From: Candidatus Nomurabacteria bacterium
GTDB lineage: Bacteria > Patescibacteriota > Saccharimonadia > JAGOAT01
Reading direction: 5' to 3'
NCBI GenBank assembly: GCA_020639315.1
Contig: JACKGM010000001.1
Span: forward strand, 82,511-146,510
Length of the DNA: 64,000 nucleotides
Shown here in pieces: positions 314 to 53,800 of this stretch. Numbering within the stretch: the first letter of the stretch is position 1; the number at the start of each line of letters is the position of its first letter. The notes beneath the pieces were generated by a model. The model saw nothing but the letters and a program-made list of their open reading frames with translations. It did no database searches and was not told where the DNA came from. The translations under genes and the position numbers were made by a program.

Positions 314-506
314 ATAATGGGTTAGGTAATACAGTTACTTTTTATGTTTATTGTTAGTTTTCTGGATACCCAGAGCAAGCTCTGAGTATGACGGATGCAA
401 ATGCGGGGATACTGGATCCCCCGTAAGTTCTCCGAACTTCGGAGGATGACAGGAGTTGGGTCATCTTCCAAATTTCCATAAGAAATTACGGGGGATCCAG
501 TATTTC
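311..506. repeat. Intergenic mosaic: module D plus a head-to-head hairpin-cassette doublet
   Basis: Module D (TAGATAATGGGTTAGGT...TTCTGGATACCCAGAGCAAGCTCTGAGTATGAC) recurs at 21778-21870 and inverted at 25565-25660. It is followed by one reverse unit (409-451) and one forward subtype-2 unit (461-505). Confidence 0.75.
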
Positions 507-883
507 GTATTTACTCTATTCTTAAATCTATTGTAATTACAACATGAATATTAAAACTCTTATACTGACTCGAACTAGGGTACTTCTAAGTCAATTGTTG
601 ATTGACCACCTTTTAAAGCATTAGTATATTTGTTTCCAACCCAACAAATGATCAGTGTCACTAGTTGTTCTTATCACAATTCAGGATTATTTTGACGAGC
701 CGAGTACACTTTACAAGATTTAGATCAGCTGCCTCAGCTACCGAACATCTAAATGGTCAGCTACCCGCTGCCTACTTACTATTTTGTACCCTAGTATATA
801 CTCAATTTTCTTTGTCCAACATATAGATATAAATAATGTATTCGCTTATGCTTACATGTTATGCGTTTGTGTAATATTATGAT

Positions 884-1154: not shown

Positions 1155-1500
1155 TGCGGAGATACTGGATCCCCCGTAAACCCTCTGGGTTTCGGAGGAT
1201 GACAATGCAAATGCGGGAATACTGGATCCCCCGTAAGTTCTCCGAACTTCGGAGGATGACAAGAGAAGAGTCATCTTCGGACTACCCTTTAGGGTAATAC
1301 CGGAGATCCAGTATTTGAATTAGACCCATAATAATGCAAAATACTGGATCCCCCGTAAACCTCTATGAGGATTCGGAGGATGACAACTCACAATGCGGGA
1401 TGCTGGATCCCCCGTAAAATCCTTCGGATTTTCGGAGGATGACAGGAAAGGGACGGGTTTCGGAAGGTGACAATGCAGGGGCAGTTTCGGAGGATGACAA
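1155..1500. repeat. Array of hairpin cassettes (5 full units plus 2 half units)
   Basis: Units ATACTGGATCCCCCGTAA-[variable stem-loop]-TTCGGAGGATGACA at 1162-1204, 1219-1261, 1341-1385 and 1400-1444. One opposite-orientation subtype-2 unit at 1270-1316. Half units (GGGACGGGTTTCGGAGGATGACA type) at 1445-1499. Confidence 0.85.
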
Positions 1501-5389: not shown

Positions 5390-5572
5390 TATAGCAAGCT
5401 CAAAACAAAATCCAATTCCCTGACTCAGATAATAGAGAACCAGTAGTTGAGTACTTCTACTGAATCATATCCATGATATGGTGAATAAGAAAACTCATAC
5501 TAATGGACTCTAGAACCAGGTCAGGAATTGTGATTAATAGAAATATCTGATTTTGTTTTTAACTTGCTATAT
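5390..5572. mobile_element. Nested family-B' element inside A2
   Basis: TATAGCAAGCTCAAAACAAAAT ... ATTTTGTTTTTAACTTGCTATA. Inverted copy of 91-272. Confidence 0.65.
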
Positions 5573-5734
5573 AGCATACCCAAAACAAAACCGGACAATT
5601 TGGGATTACTAATAAAGAGCTAGAAAGTTAGTTCTTTATATGAACCTTACTTATAAGTAAGGTGAATAGAAAAACTAGATTTGTAGACTTTAGTAGTGGG
5701 TCAAAAGGCTGGTTTTGTTTTGGGTATGCTATAT
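5571..5734. mobile_element. Nested family-B'' element (third TIR variant)
   Basis: ATAGCATACCCAAAACAAAACCGGACAATTTGGG ... GGTTTTGTTTTGGGTATGCTAT. Same architecture as family B but with diverged termini. Absent from copy A1. Confidence 0.6.
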
Positions 5735-5822
5735 CTAAGGATGGGCCTCTCTTTAGAAAGAGAACTATTACTTAGTCCATGATCAAGAATTTATTGTGGC
5801 AAGACAAAGTGTTAGGTCTATA

Positions 5823-5925
5823 AATCAAATACTGGATCTACCATAAATCCTTACAGGATTTTGGGAGATGACTCTTCTCTTGTCATCCTCCAAAGCTCAA
5901 AGAACTTACCCGAGTACAGGGTTAT
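5823..5925. repeat. Degenerate hairpin-cassette doublet
   Basis: AAATACTGGATCTACC...GGGAGATGAC, then TCTTCTCT, then TGTCATCCTCCAAAGCTCAAAGAACTTACCC. Eroded versions of the subtype-2 and subtype-1 units. Confidence 0.6.
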
Positions 5926-10208: not shown

Positions 10209-10304
10209 TAATTTTAGTATAGCATGCGCAATGCAAAATCCGATACTCTCCCCTTAATAAAACAAAACAAAAATCTACCGTGAAATATACAACTCTTATA
10301 GTAA

Positions 10305-13587: not shown

Positions 13588-13700
13588 CAAATACTGAATC
13601 TCCGGTATTACCCTAAAGGGTAATCCGAAGATGACTCTTCTCTTGTCATCCTCCGAAACCCGGAGGGTTTACGGGGGATCCAGTATTCTGGCATTTGCAT
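13588..13700. repeat. Head-to-head hairpin-cassette doublet (REPIN-like)
   Basis: Reverse subtype-2 unit (13590-13636), then TCTTCTCT, then forward subtype-1 unit with AAACCC-GGA-GGGTTT inner stem (13643-13690). Confidence 0.85.
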
Positions 13701-13863
13701 TAACCCTGTTGCCATATAACCTCACGGCTTCAAAACTGCCATTTTTGCCCCAGACTAGCAAAACACTTCGCAGCGTAACTCCTGTTATGCTTTGTCGTGT
13801 TTTGGTATTCTGGAATAAAAATCATCAGCTTTGACCTCGCAAGTTTATATGGCAACAGGGTTA
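13701..13863. mobile_element. MITE-like element, family C (copy C1)
   Basis: TIRs TAACCCTGTTGCCATATA / TATATGGCAACAGGGTTA. Internal hairpin GCAAAACAC...GTGTTTTG. Copies at 38250-38412 and 48980-49142 lie in the opposite orientation. Confidence 0.75.
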
Positions 13864-14207
13864 TTGTCATCCTCCGAATTCTCATAGAGGATTACGGGGG
13901 ATCCAGTATTTCTGTATTATCTGTAACTAATACAAATACTGGATCTCCGGTATTACCCTAAAGGGTAATCCGAAGATGACAAGAGGGGATGGATCTCCGA
14001 TAATTTCCTACAGAAATTTGGAAGATGACAGAGTGAGCATTGTCATCCTCCGAAACCCAACCTCTCTCTTGTCATCCTCCGAAGTTCGGAGAACTTACGG
14101 GGGACCCAGTATCCCGCATTTGCATTGTCATCCTCCGAAACCCAACCTCTCTCTTGTCATCCTCCGAAGTTCGGAGAACTTACGGGGGATCCAGTATTTT
14201 GCATTAC
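13864..14207. repeat. Hairpin-cassette array (5 full plus 2 half units), including an 85-nt tandem duplication
   Basis: Units at 13866-13910, 13936-13980, about 13986-14030, 14070-14115 and 14155-14197. The block [half unit + full unit] 14041-14126 is repeated at 14127-14207. About 190 bp of this locus recurs at 14968-15125. Confidence 0.85.
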
Positions 14208-14302
14208 TATAGCAAGCTCAAACCAAAACCGGACAATTTGAGCTGTACTATAGACTCTAGAGTTAGGTCAAAAGTCTGGTTTTGTTTTTAACTTGCTATA
14301 TA
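14208..14302. mobile_element. Family-B MITE, internally deleted short copy
   Basis: Same termini (TATAGCAAGCTCAAACCAAAACCGGAC ... GGTTTTGTTTTTAACTTGCTATA) as the ~165-bp copies but lacks the central ~70 bp. Confidence 0.7.
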
Positions 14303-14313
14303 TGGGAACAGGG

Positions 14314-14742
14314 TTATTTTACCGTGATCGCAAAATTTTCGACCCGCCACTGCTGATCTTCCTTGACTAAAGTAATGGTAATCGTACCAGACTTATCATC
14401 CTCAAATCTAGCATCACCGACAATGCTAGCATGATTATTGACTTCTGTACTATTAATAAACTCCCAGTCAGTAGGGACAGCACTAACCCTAGCATCAAAT
14501 AAAGTCTGGGTCGGCATTGCCTTACTAGCCTGGCTAGAAAGCATCTCCTTTGCCTTTTGGTTTTGCTTACTGCTGATCAACTCTACAAACTGATCAGCTA
14601 CATCTACTACTTCGCCTTTGACCCGATGTTCCCTTTGATCCCCACCAAAAAACTTACCAAAATTCCCCAGGATAAATACTATCCCCACCATCAAAACTAA
14701 TATTATTACAAACATCAGACTACCGAGACCTTTTTTTTGCAT
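14314..14742 (-). CDS. Membrane-anchored hypothetical protein (possibly NTF2-like/DUF4878-type ectodomain)
   Basis: N-terminal TM helix (SLMFVIILVLMVGIVFILG). GGAGGA Shine-Dalgarno upstream. C-terminal TITITLVKEDQQWRVENF beta-rich end. Confidence 0.55.
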   Translation of the reverse strand: MQKKGLGSLMFVIILVLMVGIVFILGNFGKFFGGDQREHRVKGEVVDVADQFVELISSKQNQKAKEMLSSQASKAMPTQTLFDARVSAVPTDWEFINSTEVNNHASIVGDARFEDDKSGTITITLVKEDQQWRVENFAITVK

Positions 14743-14849: not shown

Positions 14850-15160
14850 GGATCGCCTCCGAAACCCGTCTCTCTATTGTCATCCTCCGAAGTCCTCCCT
14901 TGTCCTGTCATCCTCCGAAACCCGCCCCTCTCTTGTCATCCTCCGAAGTTCGGAGAACTTACGGGGGATCCAGTATTTCTGTATTATCTGTAACTAATAC
15001 AAATACTGGATCTCCGGTATTACCCTAAAGGGTAATCCGAAGATGACAAGAGGGGATGGATCTCCGATAATTTCCTACAGAAATTTGGAAGATGATAGAG
15101 GGAGCATTGTCATCCTCCGAAACCCGGAGGGTTTACGGGGGATCCAGTATTTTGCATTAC
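14850..15160. repeat. Hairpin-cassette array with a 28-nt-period half-unit run
   Basis: TGTCATCCTCCGAA starts at 14878, 14906 and 14934 (exact 28-nt spacing). Only the last is completed into a full hairpin (14934-14976). Then two reverse subtype-2 units (15001-15047, 15053-15097) and one forward unit (15108-15152). Confidence 0.85.
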
Positions 15161-15326
15161 TATAGCAAGCTCAAAACAAAACCGGACAATTTGAGCTGTA
15201 CTATAGAGAACTAGAAAGGTAGTTATTCTTAAGAGCCATATCCATAGATATGGTGAGTAAGAAAACTAGCTTTATAGACTCTAGAGTTGGGTCAAAAGTC
15301 TGGTTTTGTTTTTAACTTGCTATATA
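15161..15326. mobile_element. Family-B MITE (full length, ~166 bp)
   Basis: TATAGCAAGCTCAAAACAAAACCGGACAATTTGAGC ... GGTCAAAAGTCTGGTTTTGTTTTTAACTTGCTATA. Central palindrome CCATATCCATAGATATGG. Confidence 0.75.
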
Positions 15327-20168: not shown

Positions 20169-20332
20169 TATAGCAAGTTAAAAACAAAACCAGACTTTTG
20201 ACCCAACTCTAGAGTCTATAAAGCTAGTTTTCTTACTCACCATATCTATGGATATGGCTCTTAAGAAGAACTACCTTTCTAGTTCTCTATAGTACAGCTC
20301 AAATTGTCCGGTTTTGCTTTGAGCTTGCTATA
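20169..20332. mobile_element. Family-B MITE (inverted orientation relative to 15161-15326)
   Basis: TATAGCAAGTTAAAAACAAAACCAGACTTTTGACC ... GGTTTTGCTTTGAGCTTGCTATA. Confidence 0.75.
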
Positions 20333-21544: not shown

Positions 21545-22085
21545 GGTGGGATACTGGATCCCCCGTAATCCTCTATGAGGTTTCGGAGGATGACTAATGC
21601 GCGAGATACTGGATCCCCCGTAAGTTCTCTGAACTTCGGAGGATGACAAGGCAAGGGACGGGTTTCGGAGGATGACTAGACAAGGGACGGGTTTCGGAGG
21701 ATGACAATGCCCTTTCCCGTGTCATCCTCGACTTTTCCGCCCTTCATTTGAAGGAAAAGTTGGGGGATCCAGAACTCTAGATAATGGGTTAGGTGATACA
21801 GTTTAATTTATGTTTATTGTTAGTTTTCTGGATACCCAGAGCAAGCTCTAAGTATGACGAATACAAGTGCAAAATACTGGATCCCCCGTAAACCCTTCGG
21901 GTTTCGGAGGATGACAATGCCCTTTCCGGTGTCATCTTCGGATTTCTCCAAGGGAGAAATACCGGAGATCCAGTATTTGAGTTAGACCCATGGAAGTGCG
22001 AGATACTGGATCCCCCGTAAGTTCTCTGAACTTCGGAGGATGACAAGGCAAGGGACGGGTTTCGGAGGATGACAGGAGAGGGGCG
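21545..22085. repeat. Large intergenic mosaic: about 6 full hairpin units, 3-4 half units, module D
   Basis: Reverse units at 21551-21595, 21607-21651, 21875-21918 and 22003-22047. Forward long-stem variant at 21720-21775. Forward subtype-2 unit at 21930-21978. Half units AAGGGACGGGTTTCGGAGGATGAC three times. Module D at 21778-21870. Confidence 0.85.
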
Positions 22086-25368: not shown

Positions 25369-25374
25369 CAACTT

Positions 25375-25955
25375 AAATACTGGATCTCCGGTATTTATCT
25401 TTTAGAGAAATCCGAAGATGACGAAGAAGAGGCGGAAATTTGGTTTGGTGACCCAATTCCTGTCATCCTCCGAAACTGCCCCTGTATTGTCATCCTCCGA
25501 AACCTGCCTCTCTCTTGTCATCCTCCGAAGTTCAGAGAACTTACGGGGATCCAGCATCTTTGCATTTGCATTCGTCATACTCAGAGCTTGCTCTGGGTAT
25601 CCAGAAACAACAACAAACATTAAAAGTAACTGGGTTAATTTAAGTGCATTATCTAGAGTTATGGATCCCCAACTTTTCCTTCAAGTGAAGGGCGGAAAAG
25701 TCGAGGATGACTCGACTCTTGTCATCCTCCGAAACCTGCCTCTCTTGTCTTCCTCCGAAGTTCGGAGAACTTACGGGGGATCCAGTATTCTGGCATTGTG
25801 CATTGTCTTCCTCCGAATTCTCCTTGAGAGAATTACGGGGGATCCAGTATCTCGCATTTCTGGAATCCAATCCAGATACTGGATCTCCGGTATTTCTCTA
25901 AAGAGAAATCCGAAGATGACAGGAGGAGGGTATTATCATCCTCCGAAACTCCGAA
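25375..25955. repeat. Large intergenic mosaic: about 7 full hairpin units, about 4 half units, inverted module D
   Basis: Subtype-2 reverse units at 25377-25423 and 25873-25920. 28-nt-spaced half units 25452-25507 ending in full unit 25508-25555. Forward units at 25745-25790 and 25808-25853. Long-stem variant at 25661-25712. Confidence 0.85.
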
Positions 25956-26001
25956 GGATATACATATGTACATTAATAGAATTGTATGATAGGATAGACA
26001 T

Positions 26002-26292
26002 ATGAGCTATCAAGTAAGTGCTCCGATCAGTACCAAGGTATTTCGCAATGGCAACAGTAGGGCTTTGAGAATTCCTAGCACAACCTTACCTGATATTCAG
26101 CCGGGGGATATAGTAGAAGTAATATTGAGAAAAAAGAAGCAAGCGCGAGCTGGATGGGATCAACAGTTTAAGACAGCGGTTGCGAAGTCTAACAAAGTTG
26201 TCAGTGACCAATACGGTCAGCTCGATAATGACTGGGCAATATCGGATGGGCTAGATAGGGAGGAAGATTGGGGGTTTGTTGATCAAGGTTGA
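26002..26292 (+). CDS. mazE: AbrB/MazE-type antitoxin
   Basis: N-terminal swapped-hairpin motif VFRNGNSRALRIPS. 96 aa. Overlaps the downstream MazF-type gene by 17 nt. Confidence 0.7.
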   Translation: MSYQVSAPISTKVFRNGNSRALRIPSTTLPDIQPGDIVEVILRKKKQARAGWDQQFKTAVAKSNKVVSDQYGQLDNDWAISDGLDREEDWGFVDQG

Positions 26293-26605
26293 AAGAGGAG
26301 CGATCTATATGGCTTATCTCGATCCTGTGGTCGGTAGAGAGCAACGAGGCAGAAGGCCAGTGGTGGTGATTTCACCTAGTGAGATTCAGGATAATCTGGA
26401 TCGAGCAATAGTAGTACCATTTACTACTCAGAAAAAAGACTACCCTACTTATTGGAGTTATAAGCTAAAGGGCAAGACTAGTTACGCTATGCTTGATCAG
26501 ATTAGGACTTTGGATTTGAAACGTTTGCAAAATAAAGTGACTGAGTTGTCATCTGTTGAGCTCGCTAGATTGCTAGCTCGGGTTCAGGAATTGTTTGCTG
26601 TCTAA
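26276..26605 (+). CDS. mazF: MazF/PemK-family mRNA interferase toxin
   Basis: RGAIYMAYLDPVVGREQRGRRPVVVISP and ...MLDQIRTLDLKRL are typical of PemK/MazF. Confidence 0.85.
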   Translation: MLIKVERGAIYMAYLDPVVGREQRGRRPVVVISPSEIQDNLDRAIVVPFTTQKKDYPTYWSYKLKGKTSYAMLDQIRTLDLKRLQNKVTELSSVELARLLARVQELFAV

Positions 26606-26619
26606 TTGGTTGTATTGTG

Positions 26620-26745
26620 CCTTGTCATCCTCCGGTCAAATACTGGATCTCCGGGATTTCTCTAAAGAGAAATCCGAAGATGACAGGAGGAGGGCATTGT
26701 CATCCTCCGAAGTTCGGAGAACTTACGGGGGATCCAGTATTCGGC
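26620..26745. repeat. Hairpin-cassette doublet between the convergent mazF and rpmB genes
   Basis: Reverse subtype-2 unit 26640-26686, then GGAGGAGGGCAT, then forward subtype-1 unit 26698-26742. Confidence 0.85.
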
Positions 26746-28246: not shown

Positions 28247-30475
28247 TTATTTCACCCACCACCCAAAGGTCGAACCTTGACCATTACTGACTGGGGAGGA
28301 GAAAAAGATTCCTCCTCCGTGATCTTCTGTCACTCTCTTGACTAGATAGATACCTAGACCTGTGCCATCACTTCTAGTTCTTTGGGCATTGTCTGCTCGA
28401 TAGAATTTAGAGAAGAGTTTGGCTTGTTTGTCAGGAGGTACACCGATACCAGTGTCTGTCACCTGAAAGACTGGGTAGAGGACACTCTCTAGGTCCCCAC
28501 TGAAGTCTGGCTTGGAAGCGATGTCTGAGGATTGGATGATTGCTTTTAATTCGCTTACGCTTAGAAGCTTAAGAGTTAGCTTGATTGTTCCCTCTTGGGT
28601 ATAGTAGATAGCATTATCAATTAGATTCATCACTGCTTGACGGATTTTGGCTTTGTCTAAAGCTTGAGGGGGGATGTCTTCAAGGTCTGTTACTAGCCTT
28701 AACCCCTTGTCCTCAATACTAGGGATTAGATTCTCTAGCTCTTGCTTGATTAGTTCCTTGAGGTCTACTGCTTCTCTCTGGATGAAGAATCGATCTTGGG
28801 AGATTCTTGAGACATTGAGTAGGTCGTTGATGGTAGAATCCATATTGCCGACAGTGGTCATAATCCTTCTAGCAGCCATTGTTTGATCTGAGGTAGCCTT
28901 ACCTAGCTCTCCGGTGATAAAGAGGTCACTATAGCCCCTAATCGTAGTGATTGGGGTCTTTAGTTGATGAGATGCCATTGAGAGGAATTCATCCTTGGCT
29001 TTGTCTAGAGCTCTTAGGTTCTTGTTGGCAGTGCGGAGTTTTTCGGTAGCAGACTTAACTTTATGCTGGAGAGTGACATTGAAGTCTTCGATTTTAGCTA
29101 CTGCTAGGGCATTGTCTAGGGCGATTGCTAAATCATTTGAAACAATTGAGAGAGTGGAGTAATCTAAGCTATTGTAGATGTCACCACTTCTCTTTCCGCC
29201 TAAAAGTAAGTAGCCATTGAGTTTTTTGTTGTTTACTAGGGGGAAGATCATACTGAGGCTATTTTTCTGCATGAAAAACTTTTTGTCGCTCTCAGTCAAC
29301 TCGTCATAGACCGCAGGTTCTTTACCGAAGAGTTGGGGTACTTGACTAATCTCACCATATGATCTGAATAGTCCCTTCTTGCCTGATTTCATAAAGTTTT
29401 GGTTGTTTCTAAAGTATTCTTGACCATCATCGTCTAAGACTAGTATGTTACCTCTCTCGGTTTTGATCGTAGTGTAGATCAGGGCTAGAGTCTTACTAGC
29501 GATTGGGGCAAGCTTGTAATTGGAAGAATAGACATCTCCTAGCTTAGTCAATAGAGCTTGAGCATCATAACGATTTCTAAAGAATAGTTGATCGGTCAAT
29601 CTCTCAAAGAACTTTCTTAGGATTGGGAAGGTCAGGGCTAGGAGGGTGGCTAGGAGGATGTAGGCAACCAACTTGGCTACAGTAAATGTATTGTCGTCCT
29701 CCAGTACTAGTCCAATTCCAAAAAATAAAACAGCACTATAAAGCAAGACTAAGCTAAAGAGAGTAACGGTATAGAAAAAGGATCTCGCTAAAGTTGCCCG
29801 GATATCAAAAAGCTGTCTTTTTGATATCGCAAAAGCATTAAAAGTCGAAAATATGATCAGGAGCAAAGGAGCAGAACGAATACTCCAGCTGATACCAAAC
29901 ACTACTGGCATAATAATATTGGTAGTTACCCCTAGGTTGATAATAACGATTAACCCGATGGCAATCAGCTTGAGCTGGCTTTTCTGATAAATATCTACTT
30001 GCTGATAGGCAACTCGAAAAGCCAAAGCGGTATAAAATACCAAAATCATGAAGCTCACTGCATACAAGGGGAACAAATCACCCGTGATCGGCTTACTTGG
30101 AGCTGTCGTAATATCTACTCCACTAATTATCTGCTCTGATACTAGCGTCACGAAGGCCATAATGCCTGCCATCGAGATCACAAGATAATGCTGATACTTG
30201 CTCATAGGCTTACGCATGAAGACTGTTGCTAGCCCAAAGACTGATCCGACGATCATATAGCTAAAGCTGTAACCAAGCCGATGCCCAAACAGCTTGAGGT
30301 CATAGCTAGCACCATAATCACTAATATATGTCCCGATCAACCAAACGATTGAGCTAAGATTGGACAAAGCATACCACTGAATCGCTCGGGCATGATAATT
30401 GCGCAAAAGAATTACTAGCCCGACAATCCCGACAGTAGTGATCGCGAGTCCGCTAAGCAAAGTATAGTTATCCAT
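28247..30475 (-). CDS. Sensor histidine kinase HK1 (polytopic ~7-8 TM sensor, GAF-like, HisKA, HATPase_c)
   Basis: H-box SHQLKTPITTIRGY, N-box NLIDNAIYYT, G-boxes DTGIGVP / GTGLGIYLV. Start placed at ATG 30475 (MDNYTLLSG); GTG 30520 is an alternative. The C-terminal ~470 aa are identical to HK3. Confidence 0.85.
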   Translation of the reverse strand: MDNYTLLSGLAITTVGIVGLVILLRNYHARAIQWYALSNLSSIVWLIGTYISDYGASYDLKLFGHRLGYSFSYMIVGSVFGLATVFMRKPMSKYQHYLVISMAGIMAFVTLVSEQIISGVDITTAPSKPITGDLFPLYAVSFMILVFYTALAFRVAYQQVDIYQKSQLKLIAIGLIVIINLGVTTNIIMPVVFGISWSIRSAPLLLIIFSTFNAFAISKRQLFDIRATLARSFFYTVTLFSLVLLYSAVLFFGIGLVLEDDNTFTVAKLVAYILLATLLALTFPILRKFFERLTDQLFFRNRYDAQALLTKLGDVYSSNYKLAPIASKTLALIYTTIKTERGNILVLDDDGQEYFRNNQNFMKSGKKGLFRSYGEISQVPQLFGKEPAVYDELTESDKKFFMQKNSLSMIFPLVNNKKLNGYLLLGGKRSGDIYNSLDYSTLSIVSNDLAIALDNALAVAKIEDFNVTLQHKVKSATEKLRTANKNLRALDKAKDEFLSMASHQLKTPITTIRGYSDLFITGELGKATSDQTMAARRIMTTVGNMDSTINDLLNVSRISQDRFFIQREAVDLKELIKQELENLIPSIEDKGLRLVTDLEDIPPQALDKAKIRQAVMNLIDNAIYYTQEGTIKLTLKLLSVSELKAIIQSSDIASKPDFSGDLESVLYPVFQVTDTGIGVPPDKQAKLFSKFYRADNAQRTRSDGTGLGIYLVKRVTEDHGGGIFFSSPVSNGQGSTFGWWVK
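28255..29662. repeat. 1408-bp direct repeat, copy 1 (3' part of HK1)
   Basis: Base for base the same, as far as I can compare by eye, as 32611-34018 (constant offset 4356). The antisense ORFs 28674-28886 and 33030-33242 are identical. Confidence 0.85.
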
Positions 30476-32618
30476 CACTTCTCCTAGTATATGGTATCCA
30501 AACTCCGAAGACCGAACCACCTTCTGGACTGATAGGTGATCTAAAAATCACATTGCCATAATGGATTCTAGCGATTTCTCGTACTAGGTATATACCTAGC
30601 CCATTACCATCTGGTCTGACTGTCTTGGCATTGCTGGCTCGGTAAAATTTAGTAAATAGTTGCTTTTGTTTGCTCTCAGGTACCCCAATCCCAGTATCAG
30701 TGACATAAAAAGCTAGGTATTTACGACGAGGAGCGATTGCTTCTCCACCTAGAGACCCCAGCTGACGAAGTTGGCTACCAGTCAAGACTTTTGCTGATAC
30801 CCTGATCTGACCTCGGTCAGTATACTGAATTGCATTATCTATCAGATTGATTACTACTTGCCTCAGTTTGCCACCATCAGCAAAGATCTTGATTGGCTCT
30901 GGCAAATCAAGTATTAGATCCAAACCTTGCTTGATTGAAACTTTCCGATAGTGATACTCTTCCTCGACCATAGCACCAAAATCAAAGCTAGCTTTACTAA
31001 TCACCAATCTACCTTGAGCCAATCTAGAAGTAGCGAGCAGGTCCTCCAATAACTGGTTCATGTTTTGACCAGCTTGATTGATCTGACTGAGGATCTGCTT
31101 TTGCTCTGAGGTAATATGACCAAACTCTCCGTCAACCAACATCTCACTATACCCCCTGATCGTAGTGAGTGGAGTTCTAAGCTGATGTGATGCGATCGAG
31201 ATAAACTCATCCTTACTTTTGTCCAAGGCCTTGAGCTTTTCTAGGGTATCTTTCAGACGGTAATTAACCTTGGCATTATCTAGGGCAACCGCCAAATCTC
31301 CAGCTACTATTTCAATCGTTTGATAGTCATTTTCGGTATATATATCGCGACTCACTTTTTGACCAAGCACAATATGTCCGACTAGTTTACCCTTAAGAAT
31401 CATTGGAAAAATCAGTTCTGCCCCCTGACTCTTTAATTGATGCAAGGTAGCAGTATCCAAAATATGATCGACAAATATCACCTCATCCTTCAGGTAATGC
31501 CAATTCTTGGTATTAAAAATCTTATAATTAGTTGCATGGCTAAATGCAATCCGATTATGCTCATAGACAATTATCTGCAGATTCTCAAGTCCCATCTGGT
31601 CTACTATGACCTTTGCAGTATCCTTGATCATGGCTTCAAGCTTGAGATCTCTTGCTAAAATCCTACTGACTTCTCCAATCAATTGACCAGGATAGTAGTG
31701 ATAATGGTAAAACCACTTATAAGTATTTTTTTCAAAAAATCCAAGCATCGGCTGAAATAGTACGGCCAAGATAATAATGATCGGAATGAAGGCTAAGCGC
31801 TCAGGAGTAGTCAGCTTATGATCAAGACCAATTAAGCTTCCTAGATAATAACTTGCAAATAAACTGTAGATAATTGCTAATACAATGACTGCTACGCTAA
31901 AAGCCAAAGACCTACTAAAGATTAGTTTGAGATCGAATATCTTGTTTCTGAGGATTACATAAGAGTTGACAATCACCATCCCCGCCATTACAAATAATCC
32001 GATTTGACTGACCCAACCGTCGTTGATTAGGCTTGGCAAGACCAAGTTGGTCAAGACTACCAGGCTAATCCCGGTAGCATAAGTGGTCAGCATTACCTTG
32101 ATCTGAATCTTTTTGACATTTTCGACAGTATCCATTGCCCTGAGTAAATTTCTAATCGAAGGCAAAAGGACTGCAAACAAAATCACCACAAAGCTCCAAT
32201 AGTATCTACCCTTTTGGTCTACCAAAAACCCATCTTGATTCTGATAGCCTGCGACTACCTGATCAGTCAAGAGAATAGCCGAGTAAACCAATCCAAAAAT
32301 CCAAAGTTTGATCTTGCCAAGCCGGCTAAAGGGTTTGATTTCTCCCAAGTAAGCCCGACTCATTCCATAAAAAGCAATGATTGATAAAAACCCAAAAACA
32401 AATGTCAGGCGATTAGCAAAAATCGTGATCTGATCGCTAATAAACAAGCTTGCTACCAATGTAGCAACCTGCCAAAGCCCTCCAGTCAAAGCAAAGCCTA
32501 GAAACCAATGTGAAAGTCTACGATTCATCCCCCGCTTGAATACTAATCCACCAAAAACAAAGAGGATTAAAACTGGGATAATCGAAGTGATGACTATCTG
32601 ATTCACTTGACCCACCAC
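30468..32618 (-). CDS. Sensor histidine kinase HK2 (same architecture, diverged paralogue)
   Basis: H-box SHQLRTPLTTIRGY, NLIDNAIQYT, DTGIGVP, GNGLGIYLV. An alternative start GTG 32606 would give a GTGA overlap with the HK3 stop. Confidence 0.85.
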   Translation of the reverse strand: MVGQVNQIVITSIIPVLILFVFGGLVFKRGMNRRLSHWFLGFALTGGLWQVATLVASLFISDQITIFANRLTFVFGFLSIIAFYGMSRAYLGEIKPFSRLGKIKLWIFGLVYSAILLTDQVVAGYQNQDGFLVDQKGRYYWSFVVILFAVLLPSIRNLLRAMDTVENVKKIQIKVMLTTYATGISLVVLTNLVLPSLINDGWVSQIGLFVMAGMVIVNSYVILRNKIFDLKLIFSRSLAFSVAVIVLAIIYSLFASYYLGSLIGLDHKLTTPERLAFIPIIIILAVLFQPMLGFFEKNTYKWFYHYHYYPGQLIGEVSRILARDLKLEAMIKDTAKVIVDQMGLENLQIIVYEHNRIAFSHATNYKIFNTKNWHYLKDEVIFVDHILDTATLHQLKSQGAELIFPMILKGKLVGHIVLGQKVSRDIYTENDYQTIEIVAGDLAVALDNAKVNYRLKDTLEKLKALDKSKDEFISIASHQLRTPLTTIRGYSEMLVDGEFGHITSEQKQILSQINQAGQNMNQLLEDLLATSRLAQGRLVISKASFDFGAMVEEEYHYRKVSIKQGLDLILDLPEPIKIFADGGKLRQVVINLIDNAIQYTDRGQIRVSAKVLTGSQLRQLGSLGGEAIAPRRKYLAFYVTDTGIGVPESKQKQLFTKFYRASNAKTVRPDGNGLGIYLVREIARIHYGNVIFRSPISPEGGSVFGVWIPYTRRSDG

Positions 32619-34834
32619 CCAAAGGTCGAACCTTGACCATTACTGACTGGGGAGGAGAAAAAGATTCCTCCTCCGTGATCTTCTGTCACTCTCTTGACTA
32701 GATAGATACCTAGACCTGTGCCATCACTTCTAGTTCTTTGGGCATTGTCTGCTCGATAGAATTTAGAGAAGAGTTTGGCTTGTTTGTCAGGAGGTACACC
32801 GATACCAGTGTCTGTCACCTGAAAGACTGGGTAGAGGACACTCTCTAGGTCCCCACTGAAGTCTGGCTTGGAAGCGATGTCTGAGGATTGGATGATTGCT
32901 TTTAATTCGCTTACGCTTAGAAGCTTAAGAGTTAGCTTGATTGTTCCCTCTTGGGTATAGTAGATAGCATTATCAATTAGATTCATCACTGCTTGACGGA
33001 TTTTGGCTTTGTCTAAAGCTTGAGGGGGGATGTCTTCAAGGTCTGTTACTAGCCTTAACCCCTTGTCCTCAATACTAGGGATTAGATTCTCTAGCTCTTG
33101 CTTGATTAGTTCCTTGAGGTCTACTGCTTCTCTCTGGATGAAGAATCGATCTTGGGAGATTCTTGAGACATTGAGTAGGTCGTTGATGGTAGAATCCATA
33201 TTGCCGACAGTGGTCATAATCCTTCTAGCAGCCATTGTTTGATCTGAGGTAGCCTTACCTAGCTCTCCGGTGATAAAGAGGTCACTATAGCCCCTAATCG
33301 TAGTGATTGGGGTCTTTAGTTGATGAGATGCCATTGAGAGGAATTCATCCTTGGCTTTGTCTAGAGCTCTTAGGTTCTTGTTGGCAGTGCGGAGTTTTTC
33401 GGTAGCAGACTTAACTTTATGCTGGAGAGTGACATTGAAGTCTTCGATTTTAGCTACTGCTAGGGCATTGTCTAGGGCGATTGCTAAATCATTTGAAACA
33501 ATTGAGAGAGTGGAGTAATCTAAGCTATTGTAGATGTCACCACTTCTCTTTCCGCCTAAAAGTAAGTAGCCATTGAGTTTTTTGTTGTTTACTAGGGGGA
33601 AGATCATACTGAGGCTATTTTTCTGCATGAAAAACTTTTTGTCGCTCTCAGTCAACTCGTCATAGACCGCAGGTTCTTTACCGAAGAGTTGGGGTACTTG
33701 ACTAATCTCACCATATGATCTGAATAGTCCCTTCTTGCCTGATTTCATAAAGTTTTGGTTGTTTCTAAAGTATTCTTGACCATCATCGTCTAAGACTAGT
33801 ATGTTACCTCTCTCGGTTTTGATCGTAGTGTAGATCAGGGCTAGAGTCTTACTAGCGATTGGGGCAAGCTTGTAATTGGAAGAATAGACATCTCCTAGCT
33901 TAGTCAATAGAGCTTGAGCATCATAACGATTTCTAAAGAATAGTTGATCGGTCAATCTCTCAAAGAACTTTCTTAGGATTGGGAAGGTCAGGGCTAGGAG
34001 GGTGGCTAGGAGGATGTAAGTTGCCTGCTGGATTGGAGAAATCTCCCGACCGAGTGGGAATATCCAGAGAGTTGCCCCATAGCCTATGACTATGAATAGG
34101 ATTGCAATTAGGGTGAGAGTGAGGTAGTAGAATAGTGCCCGGACGGTCCATTTGTTGATGTCAAATAGCTTATATTTAGCAATGCTATAACTTGTACTAC
34201 CAACAAGCACAATAGAAAATAGTGGACCAAGTTTAGATAAAGCCCAGTTGCCGGTGATGATTGGTATTATGCCATTTGTAATAGACGCAAAAAAAGCAAA
34301 AATAACCGTTCCGATGATTATATATTTAATCTGATTTTTCTTATCATCATATATCGTATCCAAAGACCTATACCCATTAATAAGGTTTCTAAAAAAAGCT
34401 ATTAAGAAAACCACCAAAGTACCTATATAAACTATATATAGATTATTAAACTCTGGATGGAAGCCAGTATTATCCACGCTTGCTCCAATAATCATAAGGT
34501 CAGAGAAAGCAAGGATACAGGCTAGTATCGAAGAGGTTAAAATAATAACCCTATCATACCTAGATAGAACATTATATATAAATACTTTTGAAAAACTCCA
34601 AATCAATAGTACTAAAAAGTACGCCGAAAAAAAAGCTACTCTGTTAAAAAAATACTTTAACTCAAAGGTGCTAGCAAAGTCTGTATAATAGTTACTGATT
34701 ATCCACACACTAGTAGCTATCGAAAAAATAAAATATATAATATAGTTTATTCCTTTTTGATTCCTAATATATGTAAAGTAACCCAACAGAGAGTTTAGTA
34801 GGGATATCACTATAACCAATAAGAATAACACCAT
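32603..34834 (-). CDS. Sensor histidine kinase HK3 (distinct polytopic sensor; cytoplasmic module identical to HK1)
   Basis: N-terminal ~270 aa are unrelated in sequence to HK1 but equally polytopic. From YILLATLLALTFPILRKFF onward identical to HK1. Confidence 0.85.
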   Translation of the reverse strand: MVLFLLVIVISLLNSLLGYFTYIRNQKGINYIIYFIFSIATSVWIISNYYTDFASTFELKYFFNRVAFFSAYFLVLLIWSFSKVFIYNVLSRYDRVIILTSSILACILAFSDLMIIGASVDNTGFHPEFNNLYIVYIGTLVVFLIAFFRNLINGYRSLDTIYDDKKNQIKYIIIGTVIFAFFASITNGIIPIITGNWALSKLGPLFSIVLVGSTSYSIAKYKLFDINKWTVRALFYYLTLTLIAILFIVIGYGATLWIFPLGREISPIQQATYILLATLLALTFPILRKFFERLTDQLFFRNRYDAQALLTKLGDVYSSNYKLAPIASKTLALIYTTIKTERGNILVLDDDGQEYFRNNQNFMKSGKKGLFRSYGEISQVPQLFGKEPAVYDELTESDKKFFMQKNSLSMIFPLVNNKKLNGYLLLGGKRSGDIYNSLDYSTLSIVSNDLAIALDNALAVAKIEDFNVTLQHKVKSATEKLRTANKNLRALDKAKDEFLSMASHQLKTPITTIRGYSDLFITGELGKATSDQTMAARRIMTTVGNMDSTINDLLNVSRISQDRFFIQREAVDLKELIKQELENLIPSIEDKGLRLVTDLEDIPPQALDKAKIRQAVMNLIDNAIYYTQEGTIKLTLKLLSVSELKAIIQSSDIASKPDFSGDLESVLYPVFQVTDTGIGVPPDKQAKLFSKFYRADNAQRTRSDGTGLGIYLVKRVTEDHGGGIFFSSPVSNGQGSTFGWWVK
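32611..34018. repeat. 1408-bp direct repeat, copy 2 (3' part of HK3)
   Basis: See 28255-29662. The last three codons and stop differ just outside the repeat (GTG AAA TAA versus GTC AAG TGA). Confidence 0.85.
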
Positions 34835-38239: not shown

Positions 38240-38249
38240 CTAGGACCAA

Positions 38250-38412
38250 TAACCCTGTTGCCATATAAACTTGCGAGGTCAAAGCTGATGATTTTTATTC
38301 CAGAATACCAAAACACGACAAAGCATAACAGGAGTTACGCTGCGAAGTGTTTTGCTATTCTGGGGCAAAAATGGCAGTTTTGAAGCCGTGAGGTTATATG
38401 GCAAAAGGGTTA
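38250..38412. mobile_element. MITE-like element, family C (copy C2)
   Basis: TAACCCTGTTGCCATATAAAC ... TATATGGCAAAAGGGTTA. Inverted relative to C1. Confidence 0.75.
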
Positions 38413-38436
38413 ATGTCTAGATCGGGAATTTAGTGG

Positions 38437-38598
38437 TATAGCAAGCTCAAAACAAAACCGGACAATTTGAGCTGTACTATAGAGAACTAGAAAGGTAGTT
38501 CTTCTTAAGAGCCATATTCATAGATATGGTGAGTAAGAAAACTAGCTTTATAGACTCTAGAGTGGGGTTAAAAGTCTGGTTTTGTTTTTAGCTTGCTA
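38437..38598. mobile_element. Family-B MITE inserted into a fragment of a family-A arm
   Basis: The flanks GGAATTTAGTGGTA and CAAGTCAGTGTGTTGGGTCTGTAAC correspond to the family-A arm GGAATTTAGTGGTAAGTCAGTGTGTTAGGTCTATAG. Confidence 0.7.
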
Positions 38599-38602
38599 CA
38601 AG

Positions 38603-40861: not shown

Positions 40862-41094
40862 ATTCTATCCATTGTGTAGTAACCTCCCCTGTTATATCAT
40901 AGTTCATAGACTCACTCATATCTGTATTATACAATAGTACTTCGTAAACTACAAAAATAATTAAACCTTTGTTCTGGCTTCTGTACTCGTTAAGATTTAT
41001 GGTTCGAAGAAGCCTTCTTGATTTTTAGTATTTCTATCAGAGGGTCAGCGAATTTTACCTCGAGAATCTCGAGGTTGAGTTGCCAGAAATGCAA

Positions 41095-41240
41095 AAATAC
41101 TGGATCCCCCGTAAGTTCTCCGAACTTCGGAGGATGACAATGCCCTCTGTATGTCATCTTCCAAATTCCTGTAGGAAATTATGGGAGATCCAGCATTTGA
41201 ATTGAAGCCTCAGAAATGCAAAATACTGGGTCCTGACTAT
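41095..41240. repeat. Hairpin-cassette doublet plus a partial unit
   Basis: Reverse unit 41098-41140, then ATGCCCTCTGTA, then forward subtype-2 unit 41150-41195. Partial reverse unit near 41224. Confidence 0.8.
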
Positions 41241-48534: not shown

Positions 48535-48780
48535 TAGTCATCCTCCGAAACTCCACCCCTCCTCTGTCATCCTCCGAAGTTCGGAGAACTTACGGGGGAT
48601 CTAGGGCATTAGTCATCCTCCGAAACTCTGAAAGAGTTTACGGGGGACCCAGTATTTCGCATTTCAGGTAACCAATCCAAATACTGGATCTCCGGTATCT
48701 CTCCCTTGGAGAAATCCGAAGATGACAGGAGAGGGTGGATCTCCGGTATTTCTCTCCGGGTAATCCGAAGATGACAGAGG
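48535..48780. repeat. Hairpin-cassette array between the divergent thrS and tRNA-Lys genes
   Basis: Half unit near 48538. Forward units at 48566-48600 (truncated) and 48609-48655 (inner stem AAACTCT-GAA-AGAGTTT). Two reverse subtype-2 units at 48680-48775. Confidence 0.8.
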
Positions 48781-48912: not shown

Positions 48913-48979
48913 TTTTATTTACGACGATATACTTCTCGTCTATGACAGATTCTTAGGATAGTGATTTGTTTGTCAACAA

Positions 48980-49142
48980 TAACCCTGTTGCCATATGAGT
49001 TTACGAGATCAAAGCTAATAATTTTTATTCCAGAATAGCAAAACACGACAAAGCATAACAGGAGTTACGCTGCGAAGTGTTTTGCTAGTCTGGAGCAAAA
49101 ATGGCAGTTTTGAAGCCGTGAGGCTATATGGCAACAGGGTTA
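48980..49142. mobile_element. MITE-like element, family C (copy C3)
   Basis: TAACCCTGTTGCCATATGAG ... CTATATGGCAACAGGGTTA. Same orientation as C2. Confidence 0.75.
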
Positions 49143-49291
49143 ATATCAAATAGTATACGGTAGCTACCAAACCTCACTCTGTATTGGGCATCACTAGGCT
49201 CTTTCAGAGCTACTACACCGTACCTTGGGTTGTCCATTAGAAATCCCAACCTTTCTTTAAGTCTAGATTTAAGTTAGTCGAATCTAGGTGG

Positions 49292-50634: not shown

Positions 50635-50840
50635 TCCGAATACTGGATCCCCCGTAAGTTCTCCGAACTTCGGAGGATGACAAGAGTTGTGTCATCTTCA
50701 GATGATAACAATGCCCCCTCCTCCTGTCATCTTCGGATTACCCGGAGGGGAATACCGGAGATCCAGTATTTGAGTTGAGAACCATAAATACTAAATACTG
50801 GATCCCCCGTAAGTTCTCTGAACTTCGGAGGATGACAATA
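50635..50840. repeat. Hairpin cassettes between the giant gene's stop and the dinB start
   Basis: Reverse units at 50640-50683 and 50793-50836. Forward subtype-2 unit at 50728-50775. Confidence 0.8.
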
Positions 50841-50845
50841 CAGGG

Positions 50846-53800
50846 TTACTCCACCCTTCTTTGTCGTCTGATCACTAGGACTGGGATAGAGATGATAGAG
50901 ATTAGTAAGAGTAATTGGGTGACTGGGTGAGAGAGGATACCAGTATTAGGTAAGATAGAGTTTGAAGTGATGTCTTTGGTATTGGGGTTGGTTGGGGTGG
51001 GTTCTGGGGTGGGGGTAGGTTCGGGTTCTGGTTCTGGTTCTGGGGTGGTAATACTAATACCACTGACTAGACCTGTGTTGTTGGTTTGGTCTGGGTCGGT
51101 TGAGGTGGTGGTGGTTAGAGTAGCGATGTTGGAGATAGTGTCTGAGGTGTCTTCTCCTATGTAGGTATTGATATATACTGTCTCACTAAGAGTAGGAAGA
51201 ATACTATCATCTAGAGTGCAGGTTACTGTAGTAGTACCACTACAGTTGAAGTTGGGGTTGGCACTAGTAAATCCTATGAAGGTTAGTCCTGTGGGGAGGG
51301 TATCAGTCACAGTGATTGGTCCTGGGGCTGAGGTGGTGGTACTATTGTTGGTTAGCTTGAGAGCGAAGGTGACTGTATCTCCTATCCTAATCTCTTCGGT
51401 GGTCTCAAGGGACTTAGTCAGGGAGAGGTCGGAAATGGGGAGGGGTTGGGTGGTGTCTGGGATCAGGATTAGGCTAGGCTCTGTATTGTCTGTAGGATCA
51501 TCATTGCCATTGCTAGCTGGATCATCTGAGCCATTGTCTGGGTCTAGTCCGTCTTGGGAGTCATCAGTGTAGGTATTGTCATTAGTATCAGTACTAGTGA
51601 CTAGAGCTGTATTGAAGTAGTCATGGTCTAGGGTAGGACTAGTCAAAGTCAGAGTAAAGCTTAGGACTGCTACTTGGTCTGGAGCTAGACTAGAGTCTGC
51701 TGGGATAGTTAGACTAGTATCAGTTACTCCATCATAGTTTGGATTGGCTACTACTGAGTCTGGAGTAGTAGTGATTGAGACTGGGGTAGAGACTACTATT
51801 TGAGTTGGGTCTAAGTCAGGGAAAGTAGCTACTAGGTCATCAGTGACATCAACCATTAAGGCTTGTCCTAGGCCATAGTTTCTGACTGTCAGGGTGACTG
51901 GGATATCATAGCTATTAGCTATTACTTGACTAGGGTTAGTTGAATCAACAGTAGGAGTAATCGCTCCGATTGATTTAGCAATCCCGACTAGGGGAGTAGG
52001 TTCAGGAATATCTACTGGGACAAGGATAGTCTCTTCACTATCAGTATTGTTGCCTTGGTTAATTACTGGCTCTTCATTAGAAGAGATAGAAGCTAGATTG
52101 GTAATATGGGTAGGGTTATCAAGAGAGGTCGAAGTATCAGAGCTGACTGTTACTATGACAGTCACTGGATCTATCAATGAAGCTGGGGAGACTGGGTAAG
52201 AACCTAGGTAGTTACACTCTACTACTCCGGGGTTACCAGGAGTAGAGCTAGTACAATCCCAATTGGTACCACTAGCTGAGACTAGAGTTAATTCTTGAGG
52301 GAGAGTGTCAGTAACGATGATTGGACTAGTACCCCCACTATTGACTATCTCTGCTCCACTCAGGGCTGGGGTTAGACTGTAGCTGTATTCTGTCACTCCA
52401 TCACTGAGCCAAGTAGCTAGCTCAGGGTCAGTGGTGGCGGGGAGGGTGTCTTTGGTGATAGTTAGGTCAGGAGTAGGCAAGAGGGTGATCTCGGCATTGT
52501 CTTCATCATCATGGAGGTCTAGACCAGTAGGGTTGGTAGTTGTGACTGGCTTACTACCGGGGTCACTAGGACTATCTGGGTCTGGGGCTGAAGTATTGTC
52601 ATTGGGATCAGAATCAATGTCTACTTGATCGAGTCCAGTGACCTGAGCCAAGTTCTTGATTGTACCAGTAGCAGTGGCTGAGAGATCCATCGTGATTTCT
52701 AGGGTAGTCTCTTCTCCACTGGGGATATCTCCAATGTTCCATACTCCTGTTAGAGGATCAAAGCTTCCTATGGTGCTAGCACTAGGAGCATCGGTAATAG
52801 AGTGAGAGAAGTAGACTAGGTCTGGAGCTAGTCCAGAGATGATATCTTCTACTACTACTCCAGTAGCATCTGATAGTCCATTACCTGTGTCATTGTTACT
52901 GACTGTAATACTCCAAGTCACTTGGTCTAGGGGTAAAGGAGTAGGATTGTTGACTGACTTAGTCAGCTCTAGGTCTACTACTCCTAGGACACCAATCTCT
53001 TCACTATCACTATTGTTGTCTTGATTAACCACTGGTTCTTCAGTAGAGGAGACAGTAGCAGTATTGGTAATAGTGGTATTAGGGTCTACTCCGGGATTAA
53101 GAGTGACTGTCAGAATAATACTCTCTAGGGTAGCTGGAGAGACTGGGTAAGAACCCAGGTAGTTACAGTCTAGAATTGCTGGACTACCTAGGCTAGAAGC
53201 ACTACAGTCCCAGTTGACTGCGTCTGGTCCAGTTGGGTAACCAGTCATAGTCAGTTCTGGAGGTAGGTTGTCTAGTACTCTGATTGGACTAGTACCCCCA
53301 CTATTGACTATCTCTGCTCCACTCAGGGCTGGGGTTAGACTGTAGCTGTATTCTGTCACTCCATCACTGAGCCAAGTAGCTAGCTCAGGGTCAGTGGTGG
53401 CGGGGAGGGTGTCTTTGGTGATGGTCAAGTCAGGAGTAGGGATATTGCTTGGATCCATCTCAGCAGTACTCTGATCACTCACGGTATTGTCAGGGTCTAC
53501 GGTATCTACTCCGTCTACAGTAGCTGTATTGTCAGCTGGGGATTCTGTGACTCCACTGTAGTCTAAGTCTACTACTACTGTAATCACTGCGAATTCACCG
53601 ATCGGTAGATCTGAAGTCAAAGGATCAAGCAATTGAGGGTTAGTCGACTTACCATCATAGCTAGGGTTGAGAGTCAGAGTCCCAGTAGCGGGGGCAGTAG
53701 AGACAGTAACGCTATTGACAGCAGTGACTACTACTCCAGGGATCTCGGTCTCAATATCATCTACTAGATTTAGCTGAGACAAGTCGACATTACCAGTATT

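Follow-up and report, generated by a model that had tools for sequence, protein, structure and literature searches.

Clusters of short, closely related hairpins recur throughout the intergenic DNA of a 64,000-nucleotide stretch of the Candidatus Nomurabacteria bacterium contig JACKGM010000001.1 (positions 82,511 to 146,510; hereafter the window), one of them at 1155-1500, and they raise the question of which class of repeat they belong to and what might act on them. Our analysis suggests that the units are a lineage-specific family of CGTC-tagged repetitive extragenic palindromic (REP) elements of the NTS/Ssn-related motif (SRM) type, a reading to which we assign a probability of roughly 0.6. 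What is new lies within this known class: a nested variable helix, a fixed T:G pair, a bulge, obligate heterodimers and arrays of half units. To our knowledge the class has not been reported from the Candidate Phyla Radiation (CPR), leaving aside one full-text match for 'Candidate Phyla Radiation' together with 'extragenic palindromic' that was not considered.

A dense family of intergenic hairpins

The exact pattern GTCATCYTC-N14-40-GRGATCCA matches the window 34 times, compared with 0.00 matches expected from 100 dinucleotide-preserving shuffles. A looser regular expression and a covariance model (R1) recovered the same set of 42 full hairpin units; R1 describes a 15-bp bulged hairpin, was built from an alignment of 40 units (A1) and was run over the window with filters off. 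The 42 units score between 27 and 72 bits and no R1 match falls inside a gene, while in 1.12 Mb of DNA from unrelated bacteria no score exceeds 17.4 bits. Three short-form units (type T6, GTCATACTCAGAGCTTGCTCTGGGTATCCAG; at 362, 21828 and 25574) and about 16 half units bring the inventory into agreement with the roughly 45 full and 15 half units at 12 loci counted by an earlier sequence-only reading of this DNA. The units do lie at the intergenic loci which that reading gave, and none of the 62 repeat features overlaps a gene, even though genes make up 84% of the window. Units are 38-51 nt long, are packed at up to 11 in 633 nt without open reading frames (ORFs) between them, and their cores alone account for about 20% of the window's intergenic DNA. 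The hairpin family is real and dense, and none of its units is expected by chance.

The reference unit (type T1, 14152..14201 on the + strand, 72.3 bits with R1) consists of a TGTC tag, an 8-bp outer stem ATCCTCCG/CGGGGGAT with a T:G pair at position 5, a bulged A, a 6-bp inner helix AAGTTC/GAACTT closed by a GGA loop, and the tail CCAGTAT. Folded as DNA it reaches -9.4 kcal/mol, versus -7.8 on the complementary strand. Among the 42 full units the tag reads TGTC in 33, AGTC in six and CGTC in one, and no unit carries a GTAG tag; the stem always begins AT, giving an AT...AT foot, and the tail is CCAG in 36 units and CCA in 40. The T:G pair is present in 41/42 and the bulged A in 38/42, which bears out the unit as it was originally described (a tag, seven Watson-Crick pairs plus one T:G, and a bulged A). 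Columns T6 and C7 of alignment A1 are invariant, G5 is at least 90% conserved, and C40/C41 are invariant or nearly so.

Outer stems fall into a small number of types. T1 (ATCCTCCG/CGGGGGAT) is the commonest, followed in our naming by T2 (ATCTTCGG/CCGGAGAT), T3 (ATCTTCCA/TGGGAGAT), T4 (ATCTCCCA/TGGTAGAT, with a C:T mismatch at position 5) and T5 (ATCCTCGA/TGGGGGAT, with a 14-nt loop). The short form T6 (GTCATACTCAGAGC-TT-GCTCTGGGTATCCAG) lacks the bulge and retains the tag, the T:G pair and the tail. A half unit is a 5' arm followed by a polypyrimidine run, and half units form tandem arrays with a period of 28-29 nt, always 5' of a T1 unit and in its orientation.

Between the outer arms lie 16-29 nt that fold as a second helix of 6-8 bp, and the 27 distinct inner segments form about 13 helices. 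Pairing holds in 96.9% of the cells of A1, compared with 81% after shuffling and at most 58% with partners slid, although such cell counts overstate the number of independent events because the copies are related by descent. The inner stem is hypervariable and yet paired, as the sequence-only reading had proposed. Changes on both sides of a pair occur in 9 of the 15 pairs. Within the outer stem, the two double substitutions noticed earlier as preserving pairing are both seen (C:G/T:A at 23/14 and C:G/G:C at 25/10), and there is a third (G:C/A:T at 33/4). Elsewhere than at position 5, the occasional mismatches do not favour one strand (six are of the G:T type and seven of the A:C type), which suggests that the position-5 T:G is a fixed determinant of recognition or asymmetry rather than a sign of general wobble tolerance. 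By DNA folding, the canonical strands of T1, T2 and T6 are about 1.5 kcal/mol more stable than their complements; with T4 it is the complement that folds more stably. A Shine-Dalgarno or anti-Shine-Dalgarno role for the CCTCC/GGAGG found within the arms was considered and set aside, as GGAGG abuts ATG with zero spacing.

CGTC-tagged REPs and Ssn-related motifs

Two published systems provide the basis for placing the family. As defined by Di Nocera 2013 (PMC3733652), CGTC REPs have a CGTC tag that is often TGTC, an 8-9-bp stem almost invariably starting with a complementary A-T pair, a 4-5-nt loop and an unpaired CCA tail, and occur mostly as head-to-head dimers. The superfamily includes dRS3 of Neisseria and RPE-4 and RPE-6 of Rickettsia. 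According to the same paper its members have no associated transposase; tyrosine transposases were sought beside them and were not found, even where the genome encodes them. The window units share with these elements the TGTC form of the tag, an 8-bp stem beginning A-T and T-A, the 3-nt CCA tail, head-to-head heterodimers, subfamilies with compensated stem changes, G:T pairs, and the lack of a transposase nearby. They differ at the loop, where the 4-5 nt of the described families are replaced by 16-29 nt and a second helix.

The second system is described in Nat Commun 2025 (PMC11893778), in which NTS (CGTCATTCCCGCGMAVGCGGGAATCYRG), an extended dRS3, is the target of SsnA and is grouped with the broader SRM. 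SsnA is a 94-aa single-domain GIY-YIG nuclease that binds its hairpin as single-stranded DNA (ssDNA) only, and on one strand only, with no action on double-stranded DNA or RNA, and cuts a few nucleotides 5' of the tag (PMC11893778). Of the nucleotides beside the palindrome, the three that precede it govern cleavage and the C that directly follows it matters most for binding; any loop is accepted, including complementary extensions that lengthen the stem (PMC11893778). This tolerance would explain an inner helix that is hypervariable and yet paired. The same paper reports that SRM-rich genomes are enriched in symbionts, which suits a CPR bacterium as the host of the window units.

When the loop of the published SRM motif, HGTCWYN(0-2)YYVSBRHN(0-5)WNVSBRGN(0-2)RNCYNB (PMC11893778), was widened from N(0-5) to N(0-30) with nothing else changed, it found 36 sites in the window versus 0.8 in shuffles. 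The units fit the consensus at all specified positions except loop length: they have an unpaired HGTC tag directly 5' of the palindrome, a W-Y...R-N foot, a C directly 3' of the palindrome and a CYNB tail. The positions critical for SsnA coincide with the most conserved columns of A1 (G5, T6, C7 and C40/C41). R1, although built from window units only, detects every one of the nine NTS copies near ssnA in N. gonorrhoeae (a locus located by tblastn), each in the correct orientation, at 5.5-19.1 bits. Type T6 (GTCATACTC...GGTATCCAG) also parallels the Neisseria variant NTSvar, CGTCATACTCGGG-N5-CCCGAGTATC. As with NTS in Neisseria, all units are intergenic, clustered and found bracketing genes. 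Further likenesses to NTS/SRM are the AT...AT foot, a tail of the CYRG form (here CCAG), strand asymmetry, a logic of hundreds of copies, and a loop irrelevant to recognition. The action of SsnA on one strand of ssDNA appears to match the fixed asymmetry of the units and the advantage of about 1.5 kcal/mol of their canonical strand. The suggestion that this cassette was undescribed is thus not supported. A literature search for the exact unit sequence returned chance matches only, but the tag, foot and tail are those of the CGTC-tagged REP superfamily and the SRM consensus fits except at the loop. The view of the family as REP/BIME-like (BIME, bacterial interspersed mosaic element) was well founded, given its imperfect palindromes, modular units and compensated stem changes.

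Several points weigh against this assignment. In its published form, with a loop of 0-5 nt, the SRM motif gives a single, spurious match in the window, a failure due to loop length alone. The R1 scores on NTS, of at most 19 bits, are individually no better than the background maximum of 17.4 bits, and only the density and orientation of these matches are telling. NTS has neither the T:G pair nor the bulge. Clusters and tail-to-tail dimers are described as rare among CGTC-tagged REPs (PMC3733652), whereas both are common in the window, the latter with 33-34-nt linkers. Pfam scans of 57 ORFs, including intergenic ORFs of 66-96 aa, found no GIY-YIG/Ssn gene in the 64-kb window, and tblastn with SsnA gave no window match at E<=10. 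At least three outer-stem types would need either a tolerant enzyme or several paralogues, because SsnA reads sequence as well as structure. Finally, the Ssn paper (PMC11893778) makes no mention of CPR bacteria.

The remaining differences from Neisseria NTS/SRM are ones of architecture and host. NTS is 28 nt long against 38-51 nt for a window unit, and where NTS/SRM have a loop of 0-5 nt the window units have a hypervariable helix of 6-8 bp next to a bulged A. The window further has at least three compensated outer-stem types in obligate opposite orientation, tandem half-unit arrays with a 28-29-nt period, a CPR host and no ssn gene of its own. CPR/Patescibacteria are likewise not among the phyla named in the portions of PMC3733652 drawn on here.

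An Ssn homologue was observed elsewhere, on contig L058 from an alphaproteobacterial metagenome-assembled genome (8520-8905). It is apparently frameshifted, is 43% identical to N. gonorrhoeae SsnA and 60% identical over residues 1-75 to an Ssn-like query, and has ACTCGGG...CCCGAGT hairpins on both flanks. One of these flanking hairpins has a 15-nt loop, and loops beyond the published SRM limit therefore occur elsewhere too.

A possible mechanism and the rival explanations

If the units are SRM-type REPs, the canonical strand would fold whenever replication, repair or DNA uptake leaves the DNA single-stranded. A small GIY-YIG nuclease of the Ssn family, with a single domain, could then bind the tag, the tail and the foot of the hairpin; its gene would lie elsewhere in the genome and would probably itself be flanked by units. 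Such a nuclease would nick only the canonical strand, at a distance of a few nucleotides 5' of the tag. The enzyme would not read the inner helix, whose two sides may be kept complementary because the hairpin would have an open loop of 16-29 nt without them. Together the tag, the tail, the T:G pair and the bulge would make the two strands non-equivalent. By analogy with SsnA we infer which enzyme is the partner and that it acts on ssDNA, as well as any part that the units play in recombination or the control of uptake.

The hairpins might be served not by a canonical cd10448 Ssn but by a novel CPR ssDNA-hairpin system, which would take its recognition code from the fixed T:G, the bulged A and the obligate T1/T2 hetero-doublets and would tolerate, or even draw information from, the free inner helix. 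The family could then be a new non-autonomous mobile element, or a self-marking system for DNA taken up by obligate episymbionts; we regard this as doubtful. The sequence-only reading had instead looked to a REP-associated tyrosine transposase (RAYT), and the units could in principle be REP/REPIN elements mobilised in trans by such an IS200/IS605-type Y1 HUH enzyme encoded elsewhere, with the hairpin recognised on one strand and cut beside the tag. Several features suit this idea: the copies are numerous, they form inverted doublets across short spacers and a BIME-like mosaic, and their palindromes are imperfect, with one fixed mismatch and a bulge. Pfam scans found no PF01797 protein among the window ORFs, as the sequence-only reading had said of RAYT genes, though RAYTs are usually single-copy and their absence from 64 kb says little. 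The likeness to the REP-BIME-REPIN elements of E. coli and Pseudomonas extends to two alternating palindromic unit types, type-specific linkers, inverted doublets and an ssDNA hairpin recognised by a dedicated enzyme. Those REPs differ in having a GTAG tag and a Y1 HUH transposase as partner, and they conserve the whole palindrome within a family, whereas the window units conserve the base only. A RAYT partner is less likely because the tag here is TGTC, whereas GTAG marks RAYT-associated REPs, and because Di Nocera 2013 (PMC3733652) did not find tyrosine transposases beside CGTC-type REPs, which were later tied to the GIY-YIG ssDNA nuclease Ssn (PMC11893778). T1 orientation also flips between neighbouring clusters, without the replication-strand bias of the IS608 type. 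We therefore consider mobilisation by a RAYT unlikely.

Turning from DNA to RNA, the units might be transcribed hairpins acting as 3'-end stabilisers, terminators or RNase targets, with the T:G read as a U:G wobble. A U:G at position 5 in 41/42 units, the strong covariation and the location of most clusters between co-directional genes, hence probably transcribed, are compatible with this, and Di Nocera 2013 (PMC3733652) argues likewise for many REPs. However, units of both orientations occur together in each cluster, and whether T1 runs with or against the flanking genes changes from cluster to cluster. The stem is followed by CCAGTAT and not by a U-tract, so that with an orientation not fixed to transcription the units do not look like intrinsic terminators. 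The conserved unpaired tag and tail are positions that a DNA enzyme reads, the sporadic mismatches are not biased towards G:U (6 vs 7), and no Rfam family matches the units, an Rfam scan of the window returning two tRNAs only. An RNA function is thus distinctly unlikely, while incidental effects of the units on transcripts are possible. The proposal that the fold matters on one strand, as RNA or ssDNA, accordingly stands in its first part, given the asymmetry of tag, tail, T:G and bulge and the difference of about 1.5 kcal/mol; its RNA half fits poorly with both orientations in each cluster and the missing U-tract. Very improbable, in our view, is an origin of the units as miniature inverted-repeat transposable elements (MITEs) of a DDE-type insertion sequence, with the ends of the head-to-head doublets (ATACTGGATCYCCSG...) as terminal inverted repeats. 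Doublets of 90-125 nt with inverted ends would fit, and other MITE-like families occur in the same window, but there are no evident target-site duplications, and doublets are no more common than single units, half-unit arrays or tail-to-tail arrangements. The conserved features, moreover, lie inside each hairpin and not at the doublet termini, no transposase is present in the window, and a doublet had no blastn match in plasmid and phage collections.

Two further candidates were ruled out. The half-unit arrays with their 28-29-nt period have no unique spacers, which excludes a CRISPR-like reading. Integron attC sites resemble the units in having conserved outer boxes, a variable self-complementary centre, extrahelical bases that set strand choice and recognition of the folded strand. 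They differ in that attC sites separate gene cassettes beside intI/attI, whereas the window units stand several per 100-600 nt with no cassettes between them and no integrase in the window.

Cluster layout, neighbouring elements and host

The units are arranged in 11 clusters by a simple orientation rule, T1, T6 and half units pointing one way and T2, T3 and T5 the opposite way. Linkers are fixed at 9 or 14-15 nt head to head, 33-34 nt tail to tail and 18-20 nt from T1 to T1, and a head-to-head junction occurs in every cluster. This is a layout of BIME/REPIN-like hetero-doublets and of mosaics filling the larger intergenic regions, and the two orientations and two kinds of doublet noticed by the sequence-only reading are thereby refined to both orientations in each cluster with type-specific linkers. 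Solitary elements are head-to-head heterodimers, and tail-to-tail junctions and large clusters are frequent. The minimal case is cluster D1 (13588..13700), with T2(-) at 13595-13635, the linker TCTTCTCTT and T1(+) at 13645-13682. This block is 98% identical on the metagenome contig L084, whose flanks have no match in the window. The other solitary heterodimer, cluster I (41093..41200), joins T1(-) at 41101 through a 14-nt linker to T3(+) at 41153 (ATCTTCCA/TGGGAGAT).

At the start of the window, cluster A (355..512) comprises T6(-) at 362-392 and T1(-) at 413-450, the latter joined by a 9-nt head-to-head linker to T3(+) at 460-499. Cluster B (1155..1500), the interval that the original note addressed, lies downstream of a DsbD-like gene (1538-2263, - strand) and holds T1(-) at 1166-1203, 1223-1260, 1345-1384 and 1404-1443, T2(+) at 1270-1310, and half units(-) at 1459-1471 and 1486-1498. 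Close by, at 880-1025 on the + strand, three consecutive near-perfect long hairpins stand in a 1.5-kb gene-free region and fold as RNA at -87.1 kcal/mol (z = -8.9 vs shuffles). No Rfam family matches this segment (top match E = 0.05), which may represent a structured RNA that has escaped annotation or a further palindromic element. Cluster C (5825..5915) pairs a T4(-) unit at 5833-5872 (ATCTCCCA/TGGTAGAT, C:T at position 5) through a 9-nt linker with a degenerate T1 or half unit(+) from 5882.

Several of the larger clusters bracket genes. Cluster D2 (13862..14207) runs from T1(+) at 13866 through a 34-nt tail-to-tail linker to T2(-) at 13940 and T3(-) at 13990, and ends in an 85-nt tandem duplication consisting of two copies of a half unit plus T1(+) (14042-14108 and 14127-14193). 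Cluster E (14850..15160) contains half units(+) at 14879 and 14907, T1(+) at 14935, T2(-) at 15007, T3(-) at 15057 and T1(+) at 15109. Its block 14959-15125 is 99% identical to 13892-14058 of D2 as a direct repeat, so that the two clusters bracket a small DUF4878-like gene (14314-14742). In the same manner, a MazE/MazF pair (26002-26605) is bracketed by clusters G and H, and both arrangements resemble the NTS-gene-NTS layout of Neisseria. Cluster G (25373..25955) has T2(-) at 25381, half units(+) at 25462 and 25489, T1(+) at 25517, T6(+) at 25574, T5(-) at 25662, a half unit(+) at 25721, T1(+) at 25747 and 25805, T2(-) at 25880 and a half unit(+) at 25935. A 195-aa ORF across it (25418-26005) was rejected as spurious, a protein search having found no homologues. 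Cluster H (26620..26745) consists of a half unit(+) at 26624 and of T2(-) at 26644 joined by a 14-nt head-to-head linker to T1(+) at 26699.

Cluster F (21547..22085) holds T1(-) at 21555 and 21610, half units(-) at 21664 and 21693, T5(+) at 21721-21771, T6(-) at 21828-21858, T1(-) at 21878, T2(+) at 21931, T1(-) at 22007 and a half unit(-) at 22061. Between the start of the ThrRS gene and a tRNA-Lys lies cluster J (48535..48780), with a half unit(+) at 48537 and T1(+) at 48566 and 48612, followed across a 33-nt tail-to-tail linker by T2(-) at 48685 and 48736. Cluster K (50636..50840) has T1(-) at 50644, T2(+) at 50726, a 33-nt tail-to-tail linker and T1(-) at 50799, and is located between a DinB-like gene and the stop codon of a 4379-aa adhesin-like gene. 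That ORF (50846-63985, - strand) contains FG-GAP, DUF11 and SdrD-B-like repeats and internal 162-nt tandem repeats (59050-59997), and is probably a giant surface adhesin of the kind expected for an episymbiotic CPR cell.

Other repeats share these intergenic regions. One MITE-like element, about 170 nt long, ends in imperfect terminal inverted repeats of 41 nt (core TAACCCTGTTGCCATATAA) and occurs at 13698-13866, 38247-38415 and 48977-49147, and again on L084 (804-979) at 93-95% identity; each copy abuts a hairpin cluster or a TATAGCAAG element. A second small family, TATAGCAAGCTCAAAACAAAACCGGAC and its inverse, forms inverted-repeat elements of 95-160 nt, often directly after the tail of a T1 unit, with sites at 91-121, 5390-5735, 10218-10248, 14208-14300, 15161-15326, 20169-20199 and 38437-38602. 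Among three tandem histidine-kinase genes, the two at 28247-30520 and 32603-34834 are 100% identical over 300 nt (28251-28550 vs 32607-32906), which suggests recent duplication or gene conversion.

The gene content of the window is otherwise housekeeping, with no transposase found by Pfam, and the host is a sparsely sampled CPR lineage. Its PGK is 100% identical to a protein labelled Candidatus Nomurabacteria bacterium; the next relative, labelled Ca. Saccharibacteria, is 82% identical, and the rest reach at most 47%. In public genomes a PGK-based locus search gave no match above 45% identity, and a cyanobacterial origin was rejected, the 64 kb containing a single HIP1 site. The T1 pattern had no match in 185,579 GTDB species genomes, nor did a scan of viral contigs find the repeat. 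A metagenome scan found the repeats on two short contigs only, L083 and L084, beside DNA without a match in the window, and the family is therefore dispersed beyond these 64 kb. L083 carries a further compensated outer-stem type, ATATTCCA/TGGGATAT, with the T:G at position 5 and the bulged A. On the same contig, at 1170-1240, a truncated T1 3' arm abuts a full unit of this type at CG|TGTC, a junction that could mark where new units are added.

CPR genomes are only about 1 Mb in size and repeats are unexpected there, yet unit cores occupy about a fifth of the window's intergenic DNA. One practical consequence is that the repeats break short-read assemblies of the host lineage, whose Logan contigs end inside repeat clusters. 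The family also offers a natural specificity map for an enzyme of this kind, with the stem base, tag, tail, T:G and bulge conserved and the upper helix free, and such a map would directly serve the design of programmable ssDNA nucleases. Confirmation of the cognate nuclease would bring the CPR within the range of the SRM/Ssn ssDNA-nuclease system. The published SRM pattern, with its loop of at most 5 nt, misses whole families, and the prevalence of SRM/Ssn may therefore be underestimated. The finding matters mainly because it widens SRM/Ssn biology and shows the published search motif to be too narrow.

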